From positions 1 through 29,069 of the forward strand of contig JAHQWL010000065.1 in the NCBI GenBank assembly GCA_029856155.1: a stretch of DNA of 29,069 nt. Direction: 5' to 3'. The notes under the pieces are model-generated. The model saw nothing but the letters and a program-made list of their open reading frames with translations, was not told the origin of the DNA and searched no databases. Shown here one piece after another: positions 2,796 through 22,307 of this stretch; within the stretch, counting starts at the first letter, position 1; the number at the start of each line of letters is the position of its first letter. A program made the translations under genes and the position numbers. Source of the stretch: Promethearchaeia archaeon (GTDB taxonomy: Archaea > Asgardarchaeota > Lokiarchaeia > Sigyniarchaeales > SOKP01).

Positions 2796-3833
2796 CTATC
2801 GAGATACTCGCCCAGAGGTATCTCCACCCATTAACTTAAAAACTTCATCAACGGAAACTAGGTTAAAATCACCTAATATAGTGTGTTTTAGACAAGAAGC
2901 AGCTACAGCAAAATTTAAGGCATTTTGCAGATTATCTTTATATGTGATTAGACCATAGATTAATCCTCCCATAAAGGAGTCTCCTCCGCCCACTCTATCC
3001 ACGATTGGGTTGATTTCATATTGAGGACCAATATACATATTAGTTCCGTCATAAAGAACCGCTGACCATGTATTATAGCTAGCAGAAATTGATCCTCTTA
3101 AAGTAATTGCAACTTTTTTTAGGTTTGGATATTGTTTAAATATTTCTTCGACTACATATTTATAATTCTCAGCATTAAGTTTTCCCGAAGTCACATCTGT
3201 ATCCGGAGCCTTAATACCTAGAACTTTGTCAGCATCTTCTTCATTGCCAATTGCTATATCGGAATATTTTAGTAAGTTGGGTATTACTTCATTTGGGGTT
3301 TTTCCATAATTCCACAGTTGACTACGATAATTTAAATCGCATGATATTGTAATATTTTTCTCTTTTGCAACTTTTACAGCTTCAAGACAAATTTTTGCCA
3401 GATTCTGTGAAATTGCAGGTGTAATACCAGTCCAATGAAACCAAGAAGCACCTTCAAAAATTTTATTCCAATTAAAATCGTCGGGGCTAGCTTCAGATAT
3501 AGCTGAATGTGCTCTATCATAAATAACTTTACTTGGACGAACAGAGGATCCCATCTCGAGAAAATAGATTCCTATTCTGTTCCCTCCTCTCACGATATTA
3601 TTTGTATTTACGCCAAACTGTCTTAGAAATTGAATACAAGCGTTACCAATTTCATTATTTGGTAATTTCGTTATAAAGTCAACAGGAATTCCATAATTAG
3701 CTAATGAAACCGCAACATTAGCTTCCCCACCGCCATATATTAAGTCAAAAGAGCGAGTCTGGATAAAGCGTTTAAAATTAGGAGGTGAAAGTCTTAACAT
3801 TATTTCTCCAAAAGTAACAACCTTACTGTCCAT
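2796..3833 (-). CDS. kdgK: 2-keto-3-deoxygluconate kinase (PfkB family)
   Basis: FGEIMLRLS, GGGEANVA, WFHWTGITPA, DLNYR, DRVGGGDSF, C-terminal GRVSR. Confidence 0.88.
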   Translation of the reverse strand: MDSKVVTFGEIMLRLSPPNFKRFIQTRSFDLIYGGGEANVAVSLANYGIPVDFITKLPNNEIGNACIQFLRQFGVNTNNIVRGGNRIGIYFLEMGSSVRPSKVIYDRAHSAISEASPDDFNWNKIFEGASWFHWTGITPAISQNLAKICLEAVKVAKEKNITISCDLNYRSQLWNYGKTPNEVIPNLLKYSDIAIGNEEDADKVLGIKAPDTDVTSGKLNAENYKYVVEEIFKQYPNLKKVAITLRGSISASYNTWSAVLYDGTNMYIGPQYEINPIVDRVGGGDSFMGGLIYGLITYKDNLQNALNFAVAASCLKHTILGDFNLVSVDEVFKLMGGDTSGRVSR

Positions 3834-9906: not shown

Positions 9907-10176
9907 ATGGAAGAAGAGATCCCTTCAGAAATAAGAGAGAAAATTCATAAGAATGTAGATAAAATATTTGATAAATGGCTTGAAAAGGCTTCTAAAGGTG
10001 AGTCTATAGAGGGAATTGTTAAAAATCTAATGGTTGAAAAAGTTATGAATGTTCTCGGAGCAGCAATGAGGAGAACGGTTGTAAAAAAAATTGCTAAAAG
10101 GGCGATAAAGAAGGCTGTTGATAAATTTTGGGAAAAAAATCGTGAATCAATCCAAGAAAAAATTAAAAATTTATAA
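9907..10176 (+). CDS. Small Lys/Glu-rich helical hypothetical protein (89 aa)
   Basis: A paralogous C-terminal half at 13589-13711 is conserved at protein level, supporting coding status. Confidence 0.8.
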   Translation: MEEEIPSEIREKIHKNVDKIFDKWLEKASKGESIEGIVKNLMVEKVMNVLGAAMRRTVVKKIAKRAIKKAVDKFWEKNRESIQEKIKNL

Positions 10177-10266
10177 ATTTTTTATTCTTTTTCTAAGAAA
10201 ATCTTTCAATATTTTTGATCGAAATAAAATCTAAATTTGAATAATACATAATTTTATAGGTGTTTT

Positions 10267-10299
10267 ATAATCTATAGAAATGATTTTAAGATTTTTGAT
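10267..10299 (+). pseudogene. 5' stub of amidohydrolase copy 1 (IIYRNDFKIFD), separated from the rest of the gene by an insertion
   Basis: aggtgttttataatctatagaaatgattttaagatttttgat aligns ungapped with 13783-13824 (aggtgtattataatatccagaaaagattttaagatttttgat); similarity ends at 10299. Confidence 0.8.
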
Positions 10300-10466
10300 A
10301 TCTTATTGACTACAGAAGTACTATTTCTGAAAAGATTATTCCGCATTTATTATTCTGAACTTAGTAATTTGTAAAAATTATTAATGACTACCACTAATCT
10401 AATAGGCGATTTGCATTTAAATTCCTTTTGAAGCATAGGGGTTGAAAAAAACACAAACTTCACATC

Positions 10467-11540
10467 TTAAACTATCGAAATTTTATCCTTTAGCAGAAGT
10501 ATGATTAATATATAACAAAATATCATAAACCCTAAAGAAATCCAAAAGAAAATAAAAACCCCATTTGATATCCAGACTAACAGGAATATAAAAAAAAAAG
10601 GCAATAAAATAATTTGAACAATTAAAGTTTCAAAGATAAGTGTTTTAAAATCTTTTTTGCTCTCCTTCTTTTGGTCTTTTTTTTCTTTACTTTTGATCTC
10701 GCTCTTTTCCTTATCCGATAGAATAAAATTATTTCTTTCACTCAAATTTTTATCTCCATTAAAATAGAATAATAAATTTATACCAGAAAGAATAAATATT
10801 TCCACCGTCAAAACCCAAAGATAATTTTTTTTTGTAAAATCCTTTAAGAATTCGATACTTACGAAGTTTCCATCTACCTTGACCTCTATAAATAAACGAT
10901 CTCCTATGTAAAGAACTGCCCAAAAAATTACTAATAAAATCATTAAGCAAATGAAAACACTTGAGGCTTTTAAAACAAATCTTTTCAAACGGTTTGAATA
11001 TTCTTTTATTTGAAGGAATCTACCTGCAAACCAATACATAGATGTCCATATGGCGATAAAAGATAGAATTATAATTATGGTAATTAATACTGTCTCAAGG
11101 AACGTCGGTTGATAATAAGAAATAAATCTCTTATTCAATTCATGTTCATATATAAAATTTAATGCCCCTAAAAATTGGGAAAATATAAGAATAATAAAAT
11201 TAACAAAAAATACAACTATGGTCTCAATGAACGATTGTTTCATCTTTATATTCAAAATCACGGGTCTTTTTTCCGGATCTTTCCAATATAAGATAGTTTC
11301 TGCTTTATCGAATACAATATTTATAAGTAAAAATGAGATTCCAATCATAGTTAACGTCTTAACATAAGTTGGAATGGCAAAAAAGAGATTTGAATATGCC
11401 CAATAAGAAATTACTAAAGAAAGAAAAATTGTAATCACTATTGCAAATGCAAACTTTAAAATTATACCTTTTTTATTGATATGAATGTTATTTTTTATTT
11501 GGTTATAATAATCTTGAGTTTTTTTAGAATTTCTGTTTAT
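10467..11540 (-). CDS. Multi-pass membrane protein (~8 TM), candidate immunity/accessory protein
   Basis: Many hydrophobic helices; frame stays open upstream of GTG 11438 to AAGGAG SD (11550-11555) followed by ATA-ATT-ATA; start uncertain. Confidence 0.7.
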   Translation of the reverse strand: MNRNSKKTQDYYNQIKNNIHINKKGIILKFAFAIVITIFLSLVISYWAYSNLFFAIPTYVKTLTMIGISFLLINIVFDKAETILYWKDPEKRPVILNIKMKQSFIETIVVFFVNFIILIFSQFLGALNFIYEHELNKRFISYYQPTFLETVLITIIIILSFIAIWTSMYWFAGRFLQIKEYSNRLKRFVLKASSVFICLMILLVIFWAVLYIGDRLFIEVKVDGNFVSIEFLKDFTKKNYLWVLTVEIFILSGINLLFYFNGDKNLSERNNFILSDKEKSEIKSKEKKDQKKESKKDFKTLIFETLIVQIILLPFFFIFLLVWISNGVFIFFWISLGFMIFCYILIILLLKDKISIV

Positions 11541-11616
11541 AATTATCGGCTCCTTTAGTATTATTTTAAAATATATTCGTAATAAAATTTTTGAAAGAAA
11601 AAGTTAGAGTATTATT

Positions 11617-12828
11617 TTAACCTACAATCCCATCAGAATCCATTATATCAAAATAACAAGCTATTCCTAATGCAACAAATGCCACAGCCATAAGACCATA
11701 TTTTAAAGCTGCAGTAGAACCTGCTGAATATATCAACTCTAATAATGTGAGTAAAAATCCTACCCCAAATGTTATTATCATTAAAATTTGCTGCCATATG
11801 TCTACCGCCCAGTAAACAGCGATTATTTGGCTTAGTATTAGACTGAAAAATTCCACTAAAGCAGCTAACATTGCTCCTTCACTAATATAACCCGCTGCAT
11901 AATAGGCGAAAAGAAAAATATACTCCATAGCACCGAATGCCATAAGTTGGATAAACAGTTTTTGTGCCCAAGGCATGCTTGCAGGTATATATACATTTAT
12001 CAACGTTGCCAAAATTAAAATTACAAATTCAGCAACGTAAAATCCCAATTCAACATCGCTAAAGTACGGATCTGGAGGAGGAGGGGGAGGAGGAGGAGGA
12101 GGATCATCAATGATAACGTACAAAATTTGAGTAGATTTAGGATTAATATTGATATACATATAACGCTTAAGTGCATTATTAAGACAATTTTTCATTAAAG
12201 TTGTCTCTTTCAACATTTTAAAAAGTATTGCTGAAACAATGTTAGCTGCAACAATTCCATCTATGATATTCGGAAAACCAATAGCATTCGGAAGATCTTT
12301 TGTTGCTCTTTCACTAAAACAGGATGCAATTATCGAATATTTCGCAGAATTATCTGTAATTATTTTCTCAACATCGTCCCAAAGTATTTTATCATTTTCA
12401 CCTTTGAGACCTTCTTCACTTCCATGCCCTATTAATATTAGTACTTGAGTCTTATAACTCTCCAGAATTCCATTTTCAAGACTTTCAACGGATATTTGAA
12501 TCACATTGATATCGAGAATACGGGACCCAATAATATTTAGTTGACCAAAATTAATTTCAGAAGTTGTACCAATCATTCCGTATAATTTTTTAACATATTC
12601 TTCCTTCTCCTGTTTTTCAAGTTCTTGTAACAAACGTTCGTTTCTGTCATTTAGATTATTCATTATTATTTGAGTAGTTTCTTCAATTATTGAATCATCC
12701 CCTACTTGTACAAGTAAAACGTCAGAATAAGATGTTGTTGGAACGCCCGCGTTTGCAATAGAAACAATATTTGTGCCTAATAATAAACTTATTATTATTA
12801 CTGAGATTCTTAATTTTTTATTATTCAT
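11617..12828 (-). CDS. Secreted protein: caspase/CHAT-like (clan CD) His-Cys protease domain, Pro10 linker, hydrophobic C-terminal helical domain
   Basis: Signal peptide ending IANA-G; ILIGHG (H135) and IIASCFS (C170); P243-P252; ~150 aa of 4-5 hydrophobic helices. Confidence 0.7.
   Translation of the reverse strand: MNNKKLRISVIIISLLLGTNIVSIANAGVPTTSYSDVLLVQVGDDSIIEETTQIIMNNLNDRNERLLQELEKQEKEEYVKKLYGMIGTTSEINFGQLNIIGSRILDINVIQISVESLENGILESYKTQVLILIGHGSEEGLKGENDKILWDDVEKIITDNSAKYSIIASCFSERATKDLPNAIGFPNIIDGIVAANIVSAILFKMLKETTLMKNCLNNALKRYMYININPKSTQILYVIIDDPPPPPPPPPPDPYFSDVELGFYVAEFVILILATLINVYIPASMPWAQKLFIQLMAFGAMEYIFLFAYYAAGYISEGAMLAALVEFFSLILSQIIAVYWAVDIWQQILMIITFGVGFLLTLLELIYSAGSTAALKYGLMAVAFVALGIACYFDIMDSDGIVG
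12073..12102 (-). repeat. (CCT)n-rich tract encoding ten prolines
   Basis: tggaggaggagggggaggaggaggaggagg on + strand. Confidence 0.95.
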
Positions 12829-13053
12829 TCTTCCCTCATTTCATTTTTTATCTTTTTCTCTCTATTATTTATATGTTTTTTTTACATTTTTGTCTGCCTG
12901 GGTGCTGTAAATTTCATCATATAAAAAGTTTTGCATTTTATTGCATATATTCATTTTTACTTTAATTTTATCTTCTTTTGCTATTTCTGTAAGTTTTCCA
13001 GTATAACTTTTGAATATTCATTATATTCGTTAGAAATCTTTCCATAGTGAGTT

Positions 13054-13586
13054 GATATAATCAACTATATGGATCGGTACAATGTAGAAAAAGCAATCAT
13101 TACAACAATAAATAGAACTAAATATTATGGGAAACAAAAAGAAGCGGCTACTAAGAAGAGTGAAAGAGATAAAATGTCAAAATTCTTAGATGACTTTAAA
13201 AAAATGTTACCAAAAGGACAATTATCACATTCTGATGTAATAGACATTGCAAATAAAGCACCCGAGAGGTTTTACAAATTTTTTTGGTTTAATCCAAAAT
13301 TATCCCCCAACGAAGAGGAAAATAGCTACAAAATACTGGAAGACCATTTTAAGAAAGGATTTTGTGGAGTAAAAATTCATCCCGGTTTTAATTTATTAAA
13401 AATTCCTAAAGACATCTTAAAATTGCTTTCCTTCATGCTAGGTTTTGATAAAGAACTCATATTTTTCTTCCATTCAATGCCTAAAACTGGTTTTTTTTCA
13501 GTTGTTTTACCTAAAGATATTGCTAGTATGGCAAAAGAATTTCCACATTTAAGAATAATTGTTGGACATGCTGCTTATTGTATGGA
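13054..13586 (+). pseudogene. Amidohydrolase copy 1, internal fragment
   Basis: Paralogue of 13792-14655 from DIINYMDRY to GHAAYCM; lacks the HxH motif and ~85 C-terminal residues; the tail of ORF 13069-13632 is out-of-frame read-through. Confidence 0.85.
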
Positions 13587-13588
13587 TT

Positions 13589-13711
13589 CTCGGAGCAATT
13601 ATAAAAAGAACAGTTGTAAGAAAGGTAGCTAAAAGAGCCGTGAATAAAGCAGTTGATCGATACTGGGAAAAAAACCATGAATTAATACTCGAAAAAATTA
13701 AAAATTTATAA
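13589..13711 (+). pseudogene. 5'-truncated second copy of the 89-aa gene
   Basis: LGAIIKRTVVRKVAKRAVNKAVDRYWEKNHELILEKIKNL* vs LGAAMRRTVVKKIAKRAIKKAVDKFWEKNRESIQEKIKNL*. Confidence 0.9.
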
Positions 13712-13791
13712 GTTTTTTATTCTTTTTTTAAGAAAATCAATCTAATATTTAGAATTCTTTTTCAAAATTCTCATAATTTAATAGGTGTATT

Positions 13792-14655
13792 ATAATATCC
13801 AGAAAAGATTTTAAGATTTTTGATGCACATCTTCATACATACGGCATTTTCCTTGATCCTCATGAAGATATCATAAGTTATATGGACCAATATAATGTTG
13901 AGAAAGCAATTTTAACTACTATAAATAGGGCAAAAATACATAAAAGCCAGAAGGATATTGCTTCAGATTCAGGAGAAAAAGATAAAATGACTAAACTTCT
14001 AGAAAATTTTAAAAATATACAACCTAAAGGTCAACTTTCTCATCAAGATGTCATAGATATCTCAAAAAAAGCGCCAGAAAGAATTTATAAATTTTTTTGG
14101 TTTAATCCAGTATTAAAACCCGAGGAAGAAGAAACTAGTTATAAAATTTTAGAAGAACATTTTAAAAAAGGATTTTGTGGCGTTAAAATTCATTCTGCGT
14201 TTAATTTAATAAATTTTCCACGTGATATTTTAAAATTGTTAACCTTTATGCAAGATTATAATAAAAATATATTATTTTATATTCATTCACTTCCAAAAAC
14301 TTCTCTTTTTCGCGGTATATCTCCCAAAGATATAGCAAAAGTTGCTAAAAAATTTCCAGAATTACGTTTAATCGTAGGACATGCTGCCTATAGTATGGAA
14401 TATGCTATTGAAATCGGTGTTGCATTAAAGAATTATAATAATATTTATTTTGAGACTTCATTATCGGCTTCATTAGGCATTTATAATTTGATCAAAACAG
14501 TTGGGCATAAGAAAATTATTTTTGGTTCAGACAGTCCAACTACCAGCCAATTGGGAGTCGAAATTGATAAAATCCTTAAATTACCTAGAATTTCAAAAGA
14601 AATAAAACAAGATATCTTTTATAATAATGTGAATAATTTACTAATAAAATTCTGA
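13792..14655 (+). CDS. Amidohydrolase_2 family TIM-barrel metal-dependent hydrolase (intact copy)
   Basis: In-frame KIFDAHLH upstream of ATG 13882; GVKIH, IVGHAA, IYFETS, IIFGSDSP; start must be ATT/ATA at 13789-13795 (in-frame TAA at 13774). Confidence 0.85.
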   Translation: MISRKDFKIFDAHLHTYGIFLDPHEDIISYMDQYNVEKAILTTINRAKIHKSQKDIASDSGEKDKMTKLLENFKNIQPKGQLSHQDVIDISKKAPERIYKFFWFNPVLKPEEEETSYKILEEHFKKGFCGVKIHSAFNLINFPRDILKLLTFMQDYNKNILFYIHSLPKTSLFRGISPKDIAKVAKKFPELRLIVGHAAYSMEYAIEIGVALKNYNNIYFETSLSASLGIYNLIKTVGHKKIIFGSDSPTTSQLGVEIDKILKLPRISKEIKQDIFYNNVNNLLIKF

Positions 14656-15617: not shown

Positions 15618-16649
15618 TTATAAATTACTGATAAATTTGATGATAAATTCTTTAAGAAAAGATATTAAATCACTTTTCCAGGCCATTCCATCAAGCTTTT
15701 TTGATTTAATAGTTTTGCTAAAGATTGTTATAACGTTTAAAACCAAATATTTGATATTTTCTAGAGTATTAGTTTGTTTAAGCTTTTCTGTTAATCCCGT
15801 ATAAATATCATCTGCTAAATTATAGACTAACAAATCTTTAAAACCGTCAAAATCATAAAGAGTTCCAAATTTAAAATATGAGGATAAAGATTGTGATACA
15901 GCGTTTTCGATCTCTTTATCACTAATTTCTTTTTTGCTAATACAAATAGTTTTAATCATCCTTTCAAGTAATAAGCCTTTAAAGCCAGTATCTGGCTTCA
16001 TTTCATACGTAGTTTTTTTCTTAAATTTAATTTCTCTCTTAGATTTTTCTTCTTTTCTAGCATATAGGACGTTCTCATAGTCTTTTGCAATAATATTCGA
16101 TAATCCCGAACGTAAAATTATTATATTTGTATTTATTTTTTGCACTCCATCAAAATGAGTAGGAACATTATCAATATGTCTTTCTAAAATGTCTTTAATA
16201 TTAAGATTCTTCGATTCATAAGGACTGAAAAAAATCTCGTAGAGTGCACTAAAATTATGTTCCTTAGTATCCATTCTCAGTATGCTCCTAATGTAATTAT
16301 CATACTCAAGAAAGAATTGGAAAATACAATCATCAACAGCCAAACTTATATAGTTTTGTGGATATTGAGCTCTAATTAGGTACTTCTTATACTCCAATCG
16401 AATTTTATGAGCTCTGATCCATTCAAAAGCTAAATCTAAAAGTTCTTTTCCTTCAGCTAACAAGCTTTTGAAGTAAAGCAATGTTTCATAAACTTCATCG
16501 TTGTTCGAGCCGATAGATTGATTTACTAAAAATTTTGTAATGATTTGAGTTGGCCCTGAATTTTTAAGTTGATTTTGAATTCGTTCATAATATCATAGTA
16601 ATTTTTGTTTATCAATTTTATATATTTCTTGAACACTTAATTTTTCCAT
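15618..16649 (-). CDS. Hypothetical helical protein; extended frame with an in-frame TGA at codon 19 (possible pseudogene or read-through)
   Basis: ATG 16649 MEKLSVQEIYKIDKQKLL*YYERIQNQLKNSGPTQIITKFLVNQSIGSNNDEVYET continues in frame into ORF 15618-16481. Confidence 0.65.
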
Positions 16650-16719: not shown

Positions 16720-17715
16720 TCATTTGAAATTGCAACCCCATCGTTCAAATTTAAGATGCGGATTTATTAATTTAAGAACATCTTTAAGATTTCTATTTCC
16801 ATCCAACAAAAGTCTTAAATTTTTTTTATAAAATGATAAATTTTTATTCTCATTAGTTTCTTCATTTTGTTGGATTAATATAACTCCATAACTTTTTGTA
16901 ACCTCATTTTCTATGATGTATTCTTCCAAATATACTACGTTCTTATCTCCAAAGTTTAACTTTATCCTCTTAATGTTAGGATGAATGCCTTTTTTATTAT
17001 ATATTTCTAATGTTTCACTTATTAAGTGTTCATAGTAATCTGGTAAAATTGCCATAACATAATAGGATGGTATATAATCTAAGAAAGATTTTCTTAGAGG
17101 ATCATCTTTATTAAATGTATAGAGATTTGATATTCTTAGGTTTTCACCTGTTTTTCTTTCAATTAATCCAACACAATAATAATATCTTTGCTCTTCTTCC
17201 CAATGCGCCTTTCTAGAAGCTCCGAGCGAATATTCAATTAAGTTGATCCCTCTCTCTAATTCGCTATCGATAAACCTAGTAAAATCGAAACGGTCTCCTA
17301 ATAGATTTTCATTTACAATTTTTCCTTGAATGATACTAGGATGTATATATTTTGAAATTTCATCAGAAATTAATTTTGTATCTTCTGTATATGGAGTGCT
17401 AATTAATGCAAATAGATTTGTTGTCCCATCTTCTGTTTCAATTGAGGAATTCAGGGTAAAAAATGATTGAAGAACATCTAGATCTTCAACATTTGCATCA
17501 TGTAAAGAAAGTGAAGCTTCAATAGACTCAATTACCCAATTGTGTCCAATATCCGCCGCTGCTGTTAAAAAAACTGGACCGAGAAATCTATAAGAAAGCA
17601 TCTTTATATCATTAATTTTCATATCATTAAATTTCTCTGAAAATTTGATGAGGTCAAAAACTAAATTATCTTCATCAGCATAAAACAATCCTAAAATTAT
17701 ATCTTCTGCTTTCAT
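16720..17715 (-). CDS. Hypothetical protein, possibly two longin/uDENN-like alpha/beta domains
   Basis: 331-aa ORF; fold guess comes only from hydrophobicity pattern and adjacency to a GTPase. Confidence 0.6.
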   Translation of the reverse strand: MKAEDIILGLFYADEDNLVFDLIKFSEKFNDMKINDIKMLSYRFLGPVFLTAAADIGHNWVIESIEASLSLHDANVEDLDVLQSFFTLNSSIETEDGTTNLFALISTPYTEDTKLISDEISKYIHPSIIQGKIVNENLLGDRFDFTRFIDSELERGINLIEYSLGASRKAHWEEEQRYYYCVGLIERKTGENLRISNLYTFNKDDPLRKSFLDYIPSYYVMAILPDYYEHLISETLEIYNKKGIHPNIKRIKLNFGDKNVVYLEEYIIENEVTKSYGVILIQQNEETNENKNLSFYKKNLRLLLDGNRNLKDVLKLINPHLKFERWGCNFK

Positions 17716-18041: not shown

Positions 18042-18572
18042 GTGGTTTCATATGACTATACATTCAAAATTCTTTTACTCGGAGATGCATCTGTTGGAAA
18101 AACTTCTTTCACAAAACGCTATTGCTATAACATATTCAATCCAAGTGAAAGATTAACAATTGGTGTAGATTTTCATGTCAAAACGATTGAACTAAATAAC
18201 AAAAAAATAAAATTACAGTTATGGGATGTTGGAGGTGAAGAAAGGTTCAGATTTCTCTTACCAACATATTGTTTAGGAGCAAACGCTGCATTTTTACTAT
18301 ATGATATAACTAGACCTTCTACTTTAGATAACATTTCAGAATGGATTACTATTGTTAGACAAAAAGGTGGACCTATCCCAATTATGCTTGTTGGTTCAAA
18401 ATTAGATCTTGAAAAAACCCAACGTCAAGTTCAAAGAGAATATGGCATACAAATTGCTGAAAAAAATGATATGGCCAGCTTTGCAGAAATGTCAGCTAAA
18501 GATAATATCAATGTAGATGATGCGTTTAAAGTTCTTACTGAACTCACATTAGACCGAACTGGTAATAGGTGA
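18042..18572 (+). CDS. Rab-like small GTPase
   Basis: GDASVGKT, TIGVDF, KLQLWDVGGEERF, LLYDIT, SKLD, SAK; SD AGGAGGT; no C-terminal Cys. Confidence 0.95.
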   Translation: MVSYDYTFKILLLGDASVGKTSFTKRYCYNIFNPSERLTIGVDFHVKTIELNNKKIKLQLWDVGGEERFRFLLPTYCLGANAAFLLYDITRPSTLDNISEWITIVRQKGGPIPIMLVGSKLDLEKTQRQVQREYGIQIAEKNDMASFAEMSAKDNINVDDAFKVLTELTLDRTGNR

Positions 18573-21752: not shown

Positions 21753-22307
21753 TTATTCTGCAGATACTGTCTTGTGTTTATTATATATTTCATCAATAAT
21801 GGCATTAAACGCATCAATAACTCCATGACCCGTTTTAGCTGATGTTATAGAATACCCTAGGAAATTTCGTTTCCTCACTATTTCTTGAATTTTAAATTTA
21901 TCCAGTTTATATTCATCCACTAAATCAACTTTATTAGCAAAAACAACGATAGGGATATCTCCACAGAACTGTTTGATATCCTCATGCCAATATGAGATGT
22001 GGTTGAAACTTTCAGCACCAAGATCGTTTTCTTCGAGACTATACACAATTATAGCAGCGTTACTATTTTTAAAAAAAGAGGGTCGTGCAAAATTGAAATC
22101 ATCTTGCCCTGCGATATCCCAGAACATTAATCTGATTTTATCACCATCAATTTCTTTATCGTATATTGAGAATTGAGCTCCAATTGTTTTAATATAATCC
22201 TCAACAAATTCATTTTGAGTAAATTTTTGAATTAAAGAGGTTTTACCTACTCTTCCATCGCCTACTAATGTTATTTTAAATCTGAATTTTGACCTTGAAT
22301 CATTCAT
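21753..22307 (-). CDS. Ras-superfamily (Rab-like) small GTPase
   Basis: GDGRVGKT, TIGAQF, WDIAGQ, NKVD, SAK. Confidence 0.95.
   Translation of the reverse strand: MNDSRSKFRFKITLVGDGRVGKTSLIQKFTQNEFVEDYIKTIGAQFSIYDKEIDGDKIRLMFWDIAGQDDFNFARPSFFKNSNAAIIVYSLEENDLGAESFNHISYWHEDIKQFCGDIPIVVFANKVDLVDEYKLDKFKIQEIVRKRNFLGYSITSAKTGHGVIDAFNAIIDEIYNKHKTVSAE

Follow-up and report, generated by a model that had tools for sequence, protein, structure and literature searches.

A recombination-driven polymorphic membrane cassette in an Asgard archaeon: a predicted exported CHAT/caspase-like peptidase with an exchangeable transmembrane module and a candidate immunity partner

Introduction

Asgard archaea are the closest prokaryotic relatives of eukaryotes, and to our knowledge little is known about how they compete with or recognise each other. 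Here, we describe a pair of genes in a stretch of 29,069 nucleotides from a Promethearchaeia archaeon (GCA_029856155.1, contig JAHQWL010000065.1, positions 1–29,069 of the forward strand), hereafter called the window. Gene 1 (11617–12828, reverse strand) encodes P0001, a 403-aa protein in which a signal peptide and an alpha/beta domain (N-domain) are followed by a Pro10 linker and a hydrophobic C-terminus of several helices that ends in an acidic tail. Gene 2 (10467–11438, reverse strand) is co-oriented, lies 178 nt downstream, and encodes P0002, a 323-aa multi-transmembrane (multi-TM) protein with a Lys/Glu-rich loop, regarded here as a candidate immunity protein. The pair is one cassette of a recombination-driven polymorphic membrane system that is widespread in Asgard archaea.

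A previous interpretation made from the letters of the DNA (the sequence-only reading) had proposed a self-processing membrane toxin, cut near QILY/VIIDD to free a pore-forming domain, with an adjacent immunity gene. Our favoured explanation is that the pair is a cassette of a polymorphic toxin–immunity-like conflict system, a proposal that we consider evenly poised between right and wrong. It was ranked first because its features match the definition of polymorphic toxins in the available part of PMC3482391. Of the traits that characterise such toxins, the family showed a conserved N-terminal part with diverse modules, a co-varying downstream gene, and both orphan cassettes and orphan partner genes.

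Results

Family distribution and co-variation of modules and partners

A profile search over 251 Asgard genomes from 63 genera detected the family in 91 genomes and 36 genera. Several genomes contained at least 8 matches, 8 being the ceiling of the search for one genome, and some of the copies were interrupted by stop codons. An exhaustive HMMER search yielded 76 cluster representatives (E up to 1e-3), and a word-indexed search returned 11 close proteins, the query counted. Of these sequences, 56 were aligned, 17–96% identical to P0001.

Gene neighbourhoods were scanned at loci taken from the best-scoring profile matches, namely the loci retrieved automatically, five regions with arrays, and another 40 places with high scores (our labels for loci and genomes begin with L and G, respectively). 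The scan relied on simple scripts of our own, with an open reading frame (ORF) caller, domain hidden Markov models, and a Kyte–Doolittle count of TM segments. After one duplicate locus had been dropped, there were 76 ORFs with an N-domain, 70 of which were informative in that they were not cut by a contig end and were followed by sufficient DNA (63 full-length and 7 5'-truncated genes). An ORF was counted as a partner if it was co-oriented, measured at least 90 aa, had two or more TM segments, and started between −40 and +260 nt from the stop codon; types were defined by single-linkage clustering (phmmer, E up to 1e-3).

At least two hydrophobic helices followed the N-domain in 68 of the 70 informative genes, and a TM partner was located downstream of 46 of the 63 full-length and 6 of the 7 5'-truncated genes. 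Clustering placed 68 N-domains in a single cluster, 72 C-terminal modules in 16 clusters, and 42 partners in 19. Module types and partner types were paired in a largely regular manner (T4–P1 5/5, T5–P2 4/4, T6–P3 3/3, T8–P8 2/2, T2–P4 3/4, and T0–P0 9/17). Among the 780 pairs that can be formed from 40 modules, similarity of module and partner occurred jointly in 48, of the module only in 28, and of the partner only in 9; when partners were shuffled, the mean number of joint pairs was 5.6 and the maximum 16, and none of 2000 permutations reached 48. The Spearman correlation was 0.73 between module and partner, compared to 0.27 between N-domain and partner and 0.25 between N-domain and module. 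This contrast outweighs the permutation count because related loci are not independent. The comparison of homologues thereby returned the pattern that the sequence-only reading had anticipated, a conserved protease (one N-domain cluster) with variable C-termini (16 modules) and co-varying downstream TM genes (Spearman 0.73).

In the window itself, the N-domain is closest to those of L003 (143 bits) and L002 (106 bits), the partners of which are unrelated to P0002; a direct comparison of P0002 with the partner at L003 revealed no similarity. For the TM module of the window, the only matches are L052, L058, L064, and L069, and the partners at L052, L058, and L064 are P0002 homologues (E 1e-11 to 1e-19).

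The N-domain was also encountered outside this architecture. It lies near the start of huge reading frames of 13,746 aa (G060:C3:1040902-1041513), 1,492 aa (G055:C1:3697876-3698307), 2,120 aa (G128:C17), and 1,602 aa (G096:C146), and in P0071, a 1,926-aa protein with bacterial TSP3 repeats. Its presence in giant frames suggests a processing role in giant surface proteins. A 442-aa paralogue within the genus (L004, G002:C24, 745–2073) has a signal peptide and the H/C domain, followed by a Tyr/Gly-rich, apparently beta-rich C-terminus with no TM helices, and represents a separate module class.

Mosaic divergence and orphan cassettes

Divergence between the window and its relatives L033 and L036 was determined by the Nei–Gojobori method. 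Synonymous divergence (dS) was 0.02–0.08 for codons 1–236 and 0.5–0.6 for codons 257–403, with a ratio of nonsynonymous to synonymous divergence (dN/dS) of 0.64–0.79 for the latter. Stronger purifying selection as the sole cause of the low N-domain divergence was ruled out, since synonymous divergence differs more than tenfold. DNA identity to L033 fell from 94–100% to 56–74% at about window position 12135 and returned to 83–89% over the intergenic region, in the case of L033 already from the last codons of gene 1. P0002 is likewise a mosaic, with its first approximately 30 codons 61–76% identical to L033.

Arrays in the genomes G113, G074, G285, and G114 consist of a family gene, its partner, a 5'-truncated family copy, and a further multi-TM ORF that is a candidate partner. 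The truncated copies in G113, G074, and G114 (L070, L071, L072, and L074) retain short DNA stretches resembling a family copy of the same array and then diverge. In G113, a 221-aa copy lacking the signal peptide and the His region (L070) comes after the full gene and its partner; it has 178 nt, at 86.5% identity, in common with the 3' part of the N-domain coding region of the full gene. The stretches retained elsewhere amount to 51–334 nt (76–90%) in the second G113 region, 267 nt (88%) in G074, and 252 nt (71%) in G114. In G285 (L073), two family–partner units align over 1,904 nt at 75% identity; truncation of the upstream copy is uncertain there because it starts 36 nt from the contig end.

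Architecture of P0001

The first 27 residues of P0001 (12748–12828, reverse strand) form a signal peptide or N-terminal signal anchor, with a hydrophobic segment at residues 5–29. As read by eye, the N-terminus is MNNKKLRISVIIISLLLGTNIVSIANA followed by G, and comprises a positive n-region, a hydrophobic core, and an A-x-A end, as expected from the Sec-type signal noted earlier. Most of the homologues listed carry an N-terminal hydrophobic segment; some of those without one are fragments.

The N-domain, a predicted exported clan-CD-like (CHAT/caspase-like) cysteine peptidase domain, covers residues 33–236 (12121–12732, reverse strand), with evidence from an AlphaFold2 (AF2) model, VIA-align, Foldseek, and hhalign. 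Its predicted catalytic histidine H135 (12424–12426, reverse strand) stands in a GHG motif within LILIGHG, and its predicted catalytic cysteine C170 (12319–12321, reverse strand) in an ASC motif within IIASC. Both are invariant in all 56 sequences and align with the His and Cys of CHAT.

A variable linker follows at residues 237–256 (12061–12120, reverse strand) and contains the Pro10 run (residues 243–252; 12073–12102, reverse strand) described as a spacer in the sequence-only reading. Here begins the recombination and divergence breakpoint, at which DNA identity to L033 drops from 97% to 56–74%. The linkers of homologues are Pro-rich, Gly-rich, or absent, and the linker itself is not conserved.

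The exchangeable multi-TM module comprises residues 257–403 (11620–12060, reverse strand). The evidence for it lies in the AF2 helices, in the jump in dS, and in its similarity only to modules with a P0002-like partner and to L069. Its approximately 147 residues contain 14% Ala, 14% Leu, 12% Ile, and 7.5% Gly. Helices were modelled at 258–277, 286–311, 317–341, 344–367, and 371–396, with a predicted local distance difference test score (pLDDT) of about 75–94; E260, ahead of the first helix, is conserved. The acidic tail (11620–11649, reverse strand) has the pattern D394-x-x-D397-x-D-GIVG, in which D397 is invariant, and reads DIMDSDGIVG in P0001. The five modelled helices and this tail correspond to the hydrophobic C-terminal helices with an acidic end that had been recognised previously. 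P0001 is present as a single copy in the genome of the window.

Fold and family of the N-domain

The AF2 model, built on the 56-sequence alignment, had a mean pLDDT of 82, with residues 33–240 mostly above 90. H135 is located at the end of strand 125–136 and C170 two residues past strand 164–168, so that the strand–GHG and strand–ASC arrangement claimed from the sequence was recovered in the model. H135 and C170 are the only invariant columns of the alignment, while G136, G140, D190, and L236 are conserved to at least 90%.

All of the top five Foldseek matches came from one structure, the SAVED-CHAT filament 8tl0, and were different chains of it (E 2e-3 to 7e-3, so that no match reached 1e-3), followed by PIGK (7wld_K, rank 9), caspases, and legumain; asparaginyl ligases were also among the structural matches. 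VIA-align, which is independent of Foldseek, likewise ranked 8tl0 first (Z 11.6–11.7, root-mean-square deviation 3.6–3.8 Å, 156–160 residues aligned), about 2 Z units above the runner-up, an unrelated alpha/beta fold (Z 9.7). Caspase-3/7 and legumain reached Z 8.0–8.4 over 150–155 residues. Only the CHAT match stands out, because generic alpha/beta (flavodoxin-like) folds also reach Z 8–9.7.

In a profile–profile comparison by hhalign with 16 CHAT domains from Asgard genomes, 109 columns were aligned, with GHG opposite the CHAT His and SC opposite the CHAT Cys, at a score of 24.4 (E 0.0085, probability 4.7%). None of 60 column shuffles reached this value (10.1 ± 1.7, maximum 14.3), and the reversed alignment scored 14.9.

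Neither P0001 nor P0002 matched Pfam, NCBIfam, or PADLOC models above cut-off, and searches of PDB sequences with P0001 and with the family profile A2 returned nothing significant. The CHAT model PF12770 matched neither P0001, even at E up to 10, nor any of the 56 homologues, and gave 0 matches in the window's own genome. Sub-threshold matches to Peptidase_C25 were obtained for 4 of the 56 members, at E 0.008 or worse. A weak match to DUF5056 (6/56) and a match to TMEM127 were taken as noise. In the ESM Atlas, the N-domain scored 0.91 with a CHAT-labelled cluster on only 133 shared features, which serves as a lead only, and the best score for P0002 (0.81) was uninformative.

From the model and the alignments, we conclude that the N-domain is predicted to have a clan-CD fold with a His–Cys dyad, nearest to CHAT and outside any curated family. 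The caspase/CHAT identity proposed by the sequence-only reading, which had called for a structure prediction, was thus upheld by a fold closest to CHAT and by an invariant dyad aligned to the CHAT His and Cys. We regard the family as an undescribed clan-CD-like one because the Pfam, NCBIfam, and PADLOC models all fail to match.

The partner protein P0002

P0002 has about eight hydrophobic segments in addition to its Lys/Glu-rich loop, in agreement with the co-oriented multi-TM gene noted before. It adjoins gene 1 in all three informative metagenome contigs of close relatives. The intergenic region (11439–11616, reverse strand) is 83–99% conserved among close relatives and holds an open in-frame extension of P0002 with no start codon. 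The 55 codons before the GTG start of P0002 (11439–11606, reverse strand) are open in frame and read ...LKEPIIINRNSKKTQDYYNQIKNNIHINKKGIILKFAFAI, resembling the N-terminal extension of some homologues, e.g., P0093, which starts with MKERIIINNNSKK. A long form of P0002 would have no canonical start, as the window has CTA where such homologues have ATG.

Genes of the P0002 family were found in 11 of the 251 genomes. Besides that of the window, 15 loci were recorded, 5 of which follow a family gene, 6 do not, and 4 are cut by a contig end. Accordingly, P0002-family genes stand alone at 6 of 11 informative loci, with no family gene within approximately 1.0–1.4 kb upstream. At L129 (G285:C22), two P0002-family genes are arranged in tandem behind one family gene, and at L126 (G180:C71) a 452-aa frame consists of two P0002-like halves; both arrangements resemble poly-immunity.

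The AF2 model of P0002 (mean pLDDT 63.6) was too poor for a fold search. Prediction of a complex between P0001 (28–403) and P0002 gave a score of 0.00 with an uncertain partner fold; this gave no verdict and was used neither way.

Insertion of the pair and other genes in the window

Compared with the synteny of the genus, a segment of approximately 3.5 kb (10300–13824) is inserted in the window. Besides the pair, it carries copies of two further sequences, the 5' part of an amidohydrolase gene and the 3' part of a small gene. The small gene itself (9907–10176) is present in 33 of 41 genomes of the genus, the window's own counted. At all 13 loci examined in other genomes of the genus, the order is GMP-synthase-like gene, pirin, small gene, amidohydrolase, and HEAT; the P0001/P0002 pair is missing from this site in all 13, and in the pair-free loci the amidohydrolase starts about 110–185 nt past the small gene.

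The segment is bordered by diverged direct repeats on the forward strand. The left repeat (10052–10299) consists of the 3' part of the small gene and downstream DNA and is 78–89% identical to the right repeat (13587–13824); at the protein level, 13577–13708 matches residues 46–89 of the small-gene product. Missing from the genus loci and flanked in this manner, the pair is an insertion, as had been stated in the sequence-only reading. Within the inserted segment, a truncated and diverged amidohydrolase copy (13069–13632, forward strand; Amidohydro_2, E 4e-5) continues in frame into the copied 3' part of the small gene. Its DNA is 75% identical to 13975–14274. The region 13069–13824 thus holds a chimeric ORF of 187 aa (the first approximately 173 codons of the amidohydrolase and the last approximately 44 of the small gene), followed by a copy of the DNA downstream of the small gene.

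At the amino acid level, identity between the internal amidohydrolase copy and its orthologue in G207, another species, amounts to 82%, versus 65% for the full copy. The full copy next to it shares about 90% identity with its counterparts in G001 and G005. A simple tandem duplication as the source of the flanking repeats was ruled out, as the internal copy is nearer to G207 than to the adjacent full copy. The layout is what would be expected from single-crossover integration of circular DNA from a divergent relative.

The same pair occurs in another context on a Loki_b31 contig, where homology is confined to window positions 12889–10574. In the genus relative G001 (L014, G001:C162; 1155–1319 and 1501–2472), only the last 54 codons of gene 1 are left beside an intact partner (93% identity). 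About 550 nt downstream, L014 also has an ORF that resembles a transposase and has a helix-turn-helix-like N-terminus (3020–3580). Across the genus, one search gave only weak or remnant matches to the family in 3 of 36 genomes, and another gave none in 18 genomes at E up to 1e-5. A search of viral contigs turned up no relative. A scan for bacterial-type promoters and terminators, unsuited to archaea, gave 19 sites versus 18.9 expected.

Elsewhere in the window, two Ras/Roc-family small GTPase genes, typical of Asgard archaea, are located at 18042–18572 (E 1e-45), with an unannotated 321-aa ORF after it, and at 21753–22307 (E 9e-40). A 775-aa protein with 11 LVIVD repeats and a Kre9/KNH-like immunoglobulin domain (330–2657) is probably a surface protein. 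Two ORFs of 287 and 331 aa (15618–16481 and 16720–17715, reverse strand) have no Pfam match.

Discussion

Proposed mechanism

We infer peptidase activity, self-cleavage, membrane damage, immunity, and a route of delivery as follows. The Sec-type signal would export the product of gene 1 and place the H135/C170 peptidase domain outside the cell, where a variable stalk would tie it to an interchangeable module of about five hydrophobic helices. The membrane module would act as an effector that perturbs membranes lacking the cognate partner, and gene 2, encoding a multi-TM protein predicted to be specific to the module type, would supply the partner that neutralises the module inside the membrane. 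Processing or activation of the protein may be the task of the peptidase domain, with cleavage possibly after L236; this near-invariant residue at the edge of the domain appears to be the best candidate processing site. Delivery would require contact, membrane exchange, or vesicles. In its full form, the proposal is that these are conflict or kin-discrimination cassettes of the Asgard archaea's own, with an integral-membrane warhead on an exported CHAT/caspase-like peptidase, cognate membrane immunity, and delivery by contact, membrane exchange, or vesicle fusion with no secretion machine. This specific version is a tentative one, and we would sooner expect it to fail than to hold.

Several observations weigh against a toxin–immunity-like system. 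The freeing of a diffusible toxin is mechanistically doubtful, because some five helices that follow a Sec signal would be expected to enter the membrane of the producing cell itself. The window contains no genes for a delivery apparatus or secretion system beside the pair, only the Sec-type signal. All C-terminal modules are hydrophobic and multi-TM, without the mix of enzymatic toxins of classical systems, and they match no known toxin family apart from stray sub-threshold Pfam hits (Bacteriocin_IIc 1/56, holin 1/56). No cleavage motif is conserved in the linker, and although D190 may point to a basic P1 specificity, Lys and Arg are missing from the linker. At the sequence level, the ties to clan CD are weak (no Pfam match above cut-off, Peptidase_C25 in 4/56, hhalign probability 4.7%). 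No TM partner was detectable for 17 of the 63 full-length genes, including the entire subtype with the NQYY.AWF tail. Linkage of module and partner is strong by type and imperfect at fine scale, because the P0002 mosaic disagrees with the TM module: the later block of P0002 is 92–98% identical to L033 and 77–82% to L031, and the module is about 99% identical to L031. Furthermore, TM counts and ORF calls depend on simple scripts, the loci were chosen from top matches, and related loci are not independent.

Alternative explanations

The same pair could also be a membrane-anchored surface protease, the alternative given in the sequence-only reading, here in a stable, non-toxic complex with its neighbour, in which TM module and partner co-evolve through membrane contact. 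Such a protease may cut substrates outside the cell or on its surface and serve, for example, adhesion, the recognition of kin or partners, remodelling of the surface, or the release of nutrient peptides, and the diversity of cassettes may then reflect recognition of self and non-self or escape from viruses. The order of signal peptide, peptidase, stalk, and multi-TM anchor is kept throughout the family, the Pro- or Gly-rich spacers, which vary in length, have the appearance of stalks and not of cleavage sites, and the hydrophobic module must remain in the membrane. An obligatory membrane interface would explain the co-variation equally well. The partner family is fairly conserved, with a mean column identity of 66% and many invariant polar residues; this agrees with a non-toxic complex, weighs against an immunity role, and would also suit an enzyme or transporter. 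Obligate subunits, however, would not be expected to stand alone or in tandem, as the stand-alone partners at 6 of 11 informative loci do, nor would an intact partner be expected beside the decayed gene 1 of G001. A housekeeping complex also accounts less well than cassette switching for the arrays of 5'-truncated cassettes, which have no signal but retain a stretch of homology, and 16 unrelated module types on one N-domain family exceed the needs of an anchor. A surface protease of this kind seems to us unlikely, though a serious competitor.

In an antiviral or abortive-infection module, the protease would control a membrane effector that kills or depolarises the infected cell, and the neighbour would be a regulator or inhibitor. 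CHAT- or caspase-activated gasdermins and other protease-triggered effectors offer an analogy; in structure, the N-domain comes closest to a CHAT protease associated with defence, the family is patchily distributed, multi-copy, and horizontally mobile, and a membrane-active C-terminus is plausible. We nevertheless find this improbable, given that the peptidase is predicted to lie outside the cell, apart from cytoplasmic infection signals, that PADLOC gave no match and the window has no adjacent sensor or nucleotide-signalling genes, and that arrays of orphan cassettes are atypical. Very improbable is a protein-sorting transpeptidase, in which a legumain/GPI8-like exported clan-CD enzyme, together with a multi-TM subunit, would anchor surface proteins on lipids or the envelope. 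PIGK (7wld_K), legumain, and asparaginyl ligases are among the structural matches (with Z 8.1–8.3 in VIA-align), and the layout of P0001 and P0002 resembles that of the glycosylphosphatidylinositol (GPI) transamidase, which combines an outside-facing catalytic domain, a membrane anchor, and a multi-TM partner. A housekeeping sorting enzyme should, however, be single-copy, syntenic, and conserved. The present family is missing from most genomes of the genus, inserted in the window, and multi-copy with pseudogenes elsewhere; its C-terminal modules are hypervariable, and CHAT clearly outscores both legumain and PIGK.

Significance

One undescribed clan-CD-like family is present in about a third of the sampled Asgard genomes and combines hallmarks of polymorphic toxin–immunity systems with membrane-embedded modules. 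If the toxin–immunity explanation is true, the modules would constitute a new class of effectors and would imply cell-to-cell contact or exchange of membranes in a group whose membrane dynamics bear on models of how eukaryotes arose. If it is false, the Asgard surface repertoire would still gain a predicted exported caspase/CHAT-like protease. Cognate and non-cognate pairs provide a clear, testable case of co-evolution between a domain and its partner.

Comparison with known systems

CHAT proteases (PF12770; SAVED-CHAT of type III CRISPR, 8tl0) are the best structural match, and as in P0001 the His precedes the Cys, each at or just past a hydrophobic strand. They are known as cytoplasmic proteins fused to sensor or repeat domains. 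Unlike them, the P0001 domain has no PF12770 match, is much smaller (approximately 200 aa), is predicted to be exported, and is fused to a membrane module. The peptidase families C80 (clostridial and MARTX toxins), C14, C13 (legumain, GPI8), and C25 (gingipain) likewise belong to the clan-CD fold class with His before Cys. C80 domains perform Leu-specific autoprocessing, which the near-invariant L236 at the domain boundary of P0001 may recall. In contrast, none of these family models matched at cut-off, flavodoxin-like folds that are unrelated reach Z scores in the same range, and no C80 protein was among the structural matches listed.

Membrane toxins with immunity partners include pore-forming colicins with Cai/Cei-type immunity proteins, CdiA-CT EC93 with CdiI, and some type VI secretion system effectors. 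By analogy, a hydrophobic effector would be neutralised in the membrane by an adjacent-encoded multi-TM immunity protein, for which P0002 is the candidate. No similarity of sequence or fold to these pairs was found, the fold of the TM module never having been searched alone. Moreover, the toxins of these pairs travel in soluble form or via dedicated machinery, while for the Asgard module the prediction is an ordinary membrane domain with multiple passes.

The available text of Zhang et al. (2012, PMC3482391) describes polymorphic toxins as having diverse C-terminal modules made by recombination, stand-alone cassettes, and downstream immunity genes, with caspase-like peptidases commonly just upstream of the variable C-terminal toxin domain; it also reports a general paucity of such systems in archaea. 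Compared with that text, the Asgard family has a caspase-like H/C peptidase directly before the variable module, a cognate gene immediately downstream, stand-alone cassettes, and a sporadic, laterally mobile distribution. It differs from the systems described there in carrying only a Sec signal, with no long N-terminal filament, RHS, or secretion-system domains, in having modules of integral-membrane helices instead of soluble enzymes, and in having partners of no known immunity family. The host is archaeal, and the toxicity of the module is a prediction. In the literature compared, no description of an Asgard caspase/CHAT-like membrane cassette family was found, and the available parts of two archaeal surveys (PMC6393860 and PMC12988326) do not mention it; the archaeal survey of Makarova et al. 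(2019, mBio), outside this comparison, may bear on novelty. Judged from sequence comparison and analogy, the peptidase family, the membrane-embedded modules, and the Asgard host appear to be new, combined with what would be the known logic of polymorphic toxin–immunity systems.

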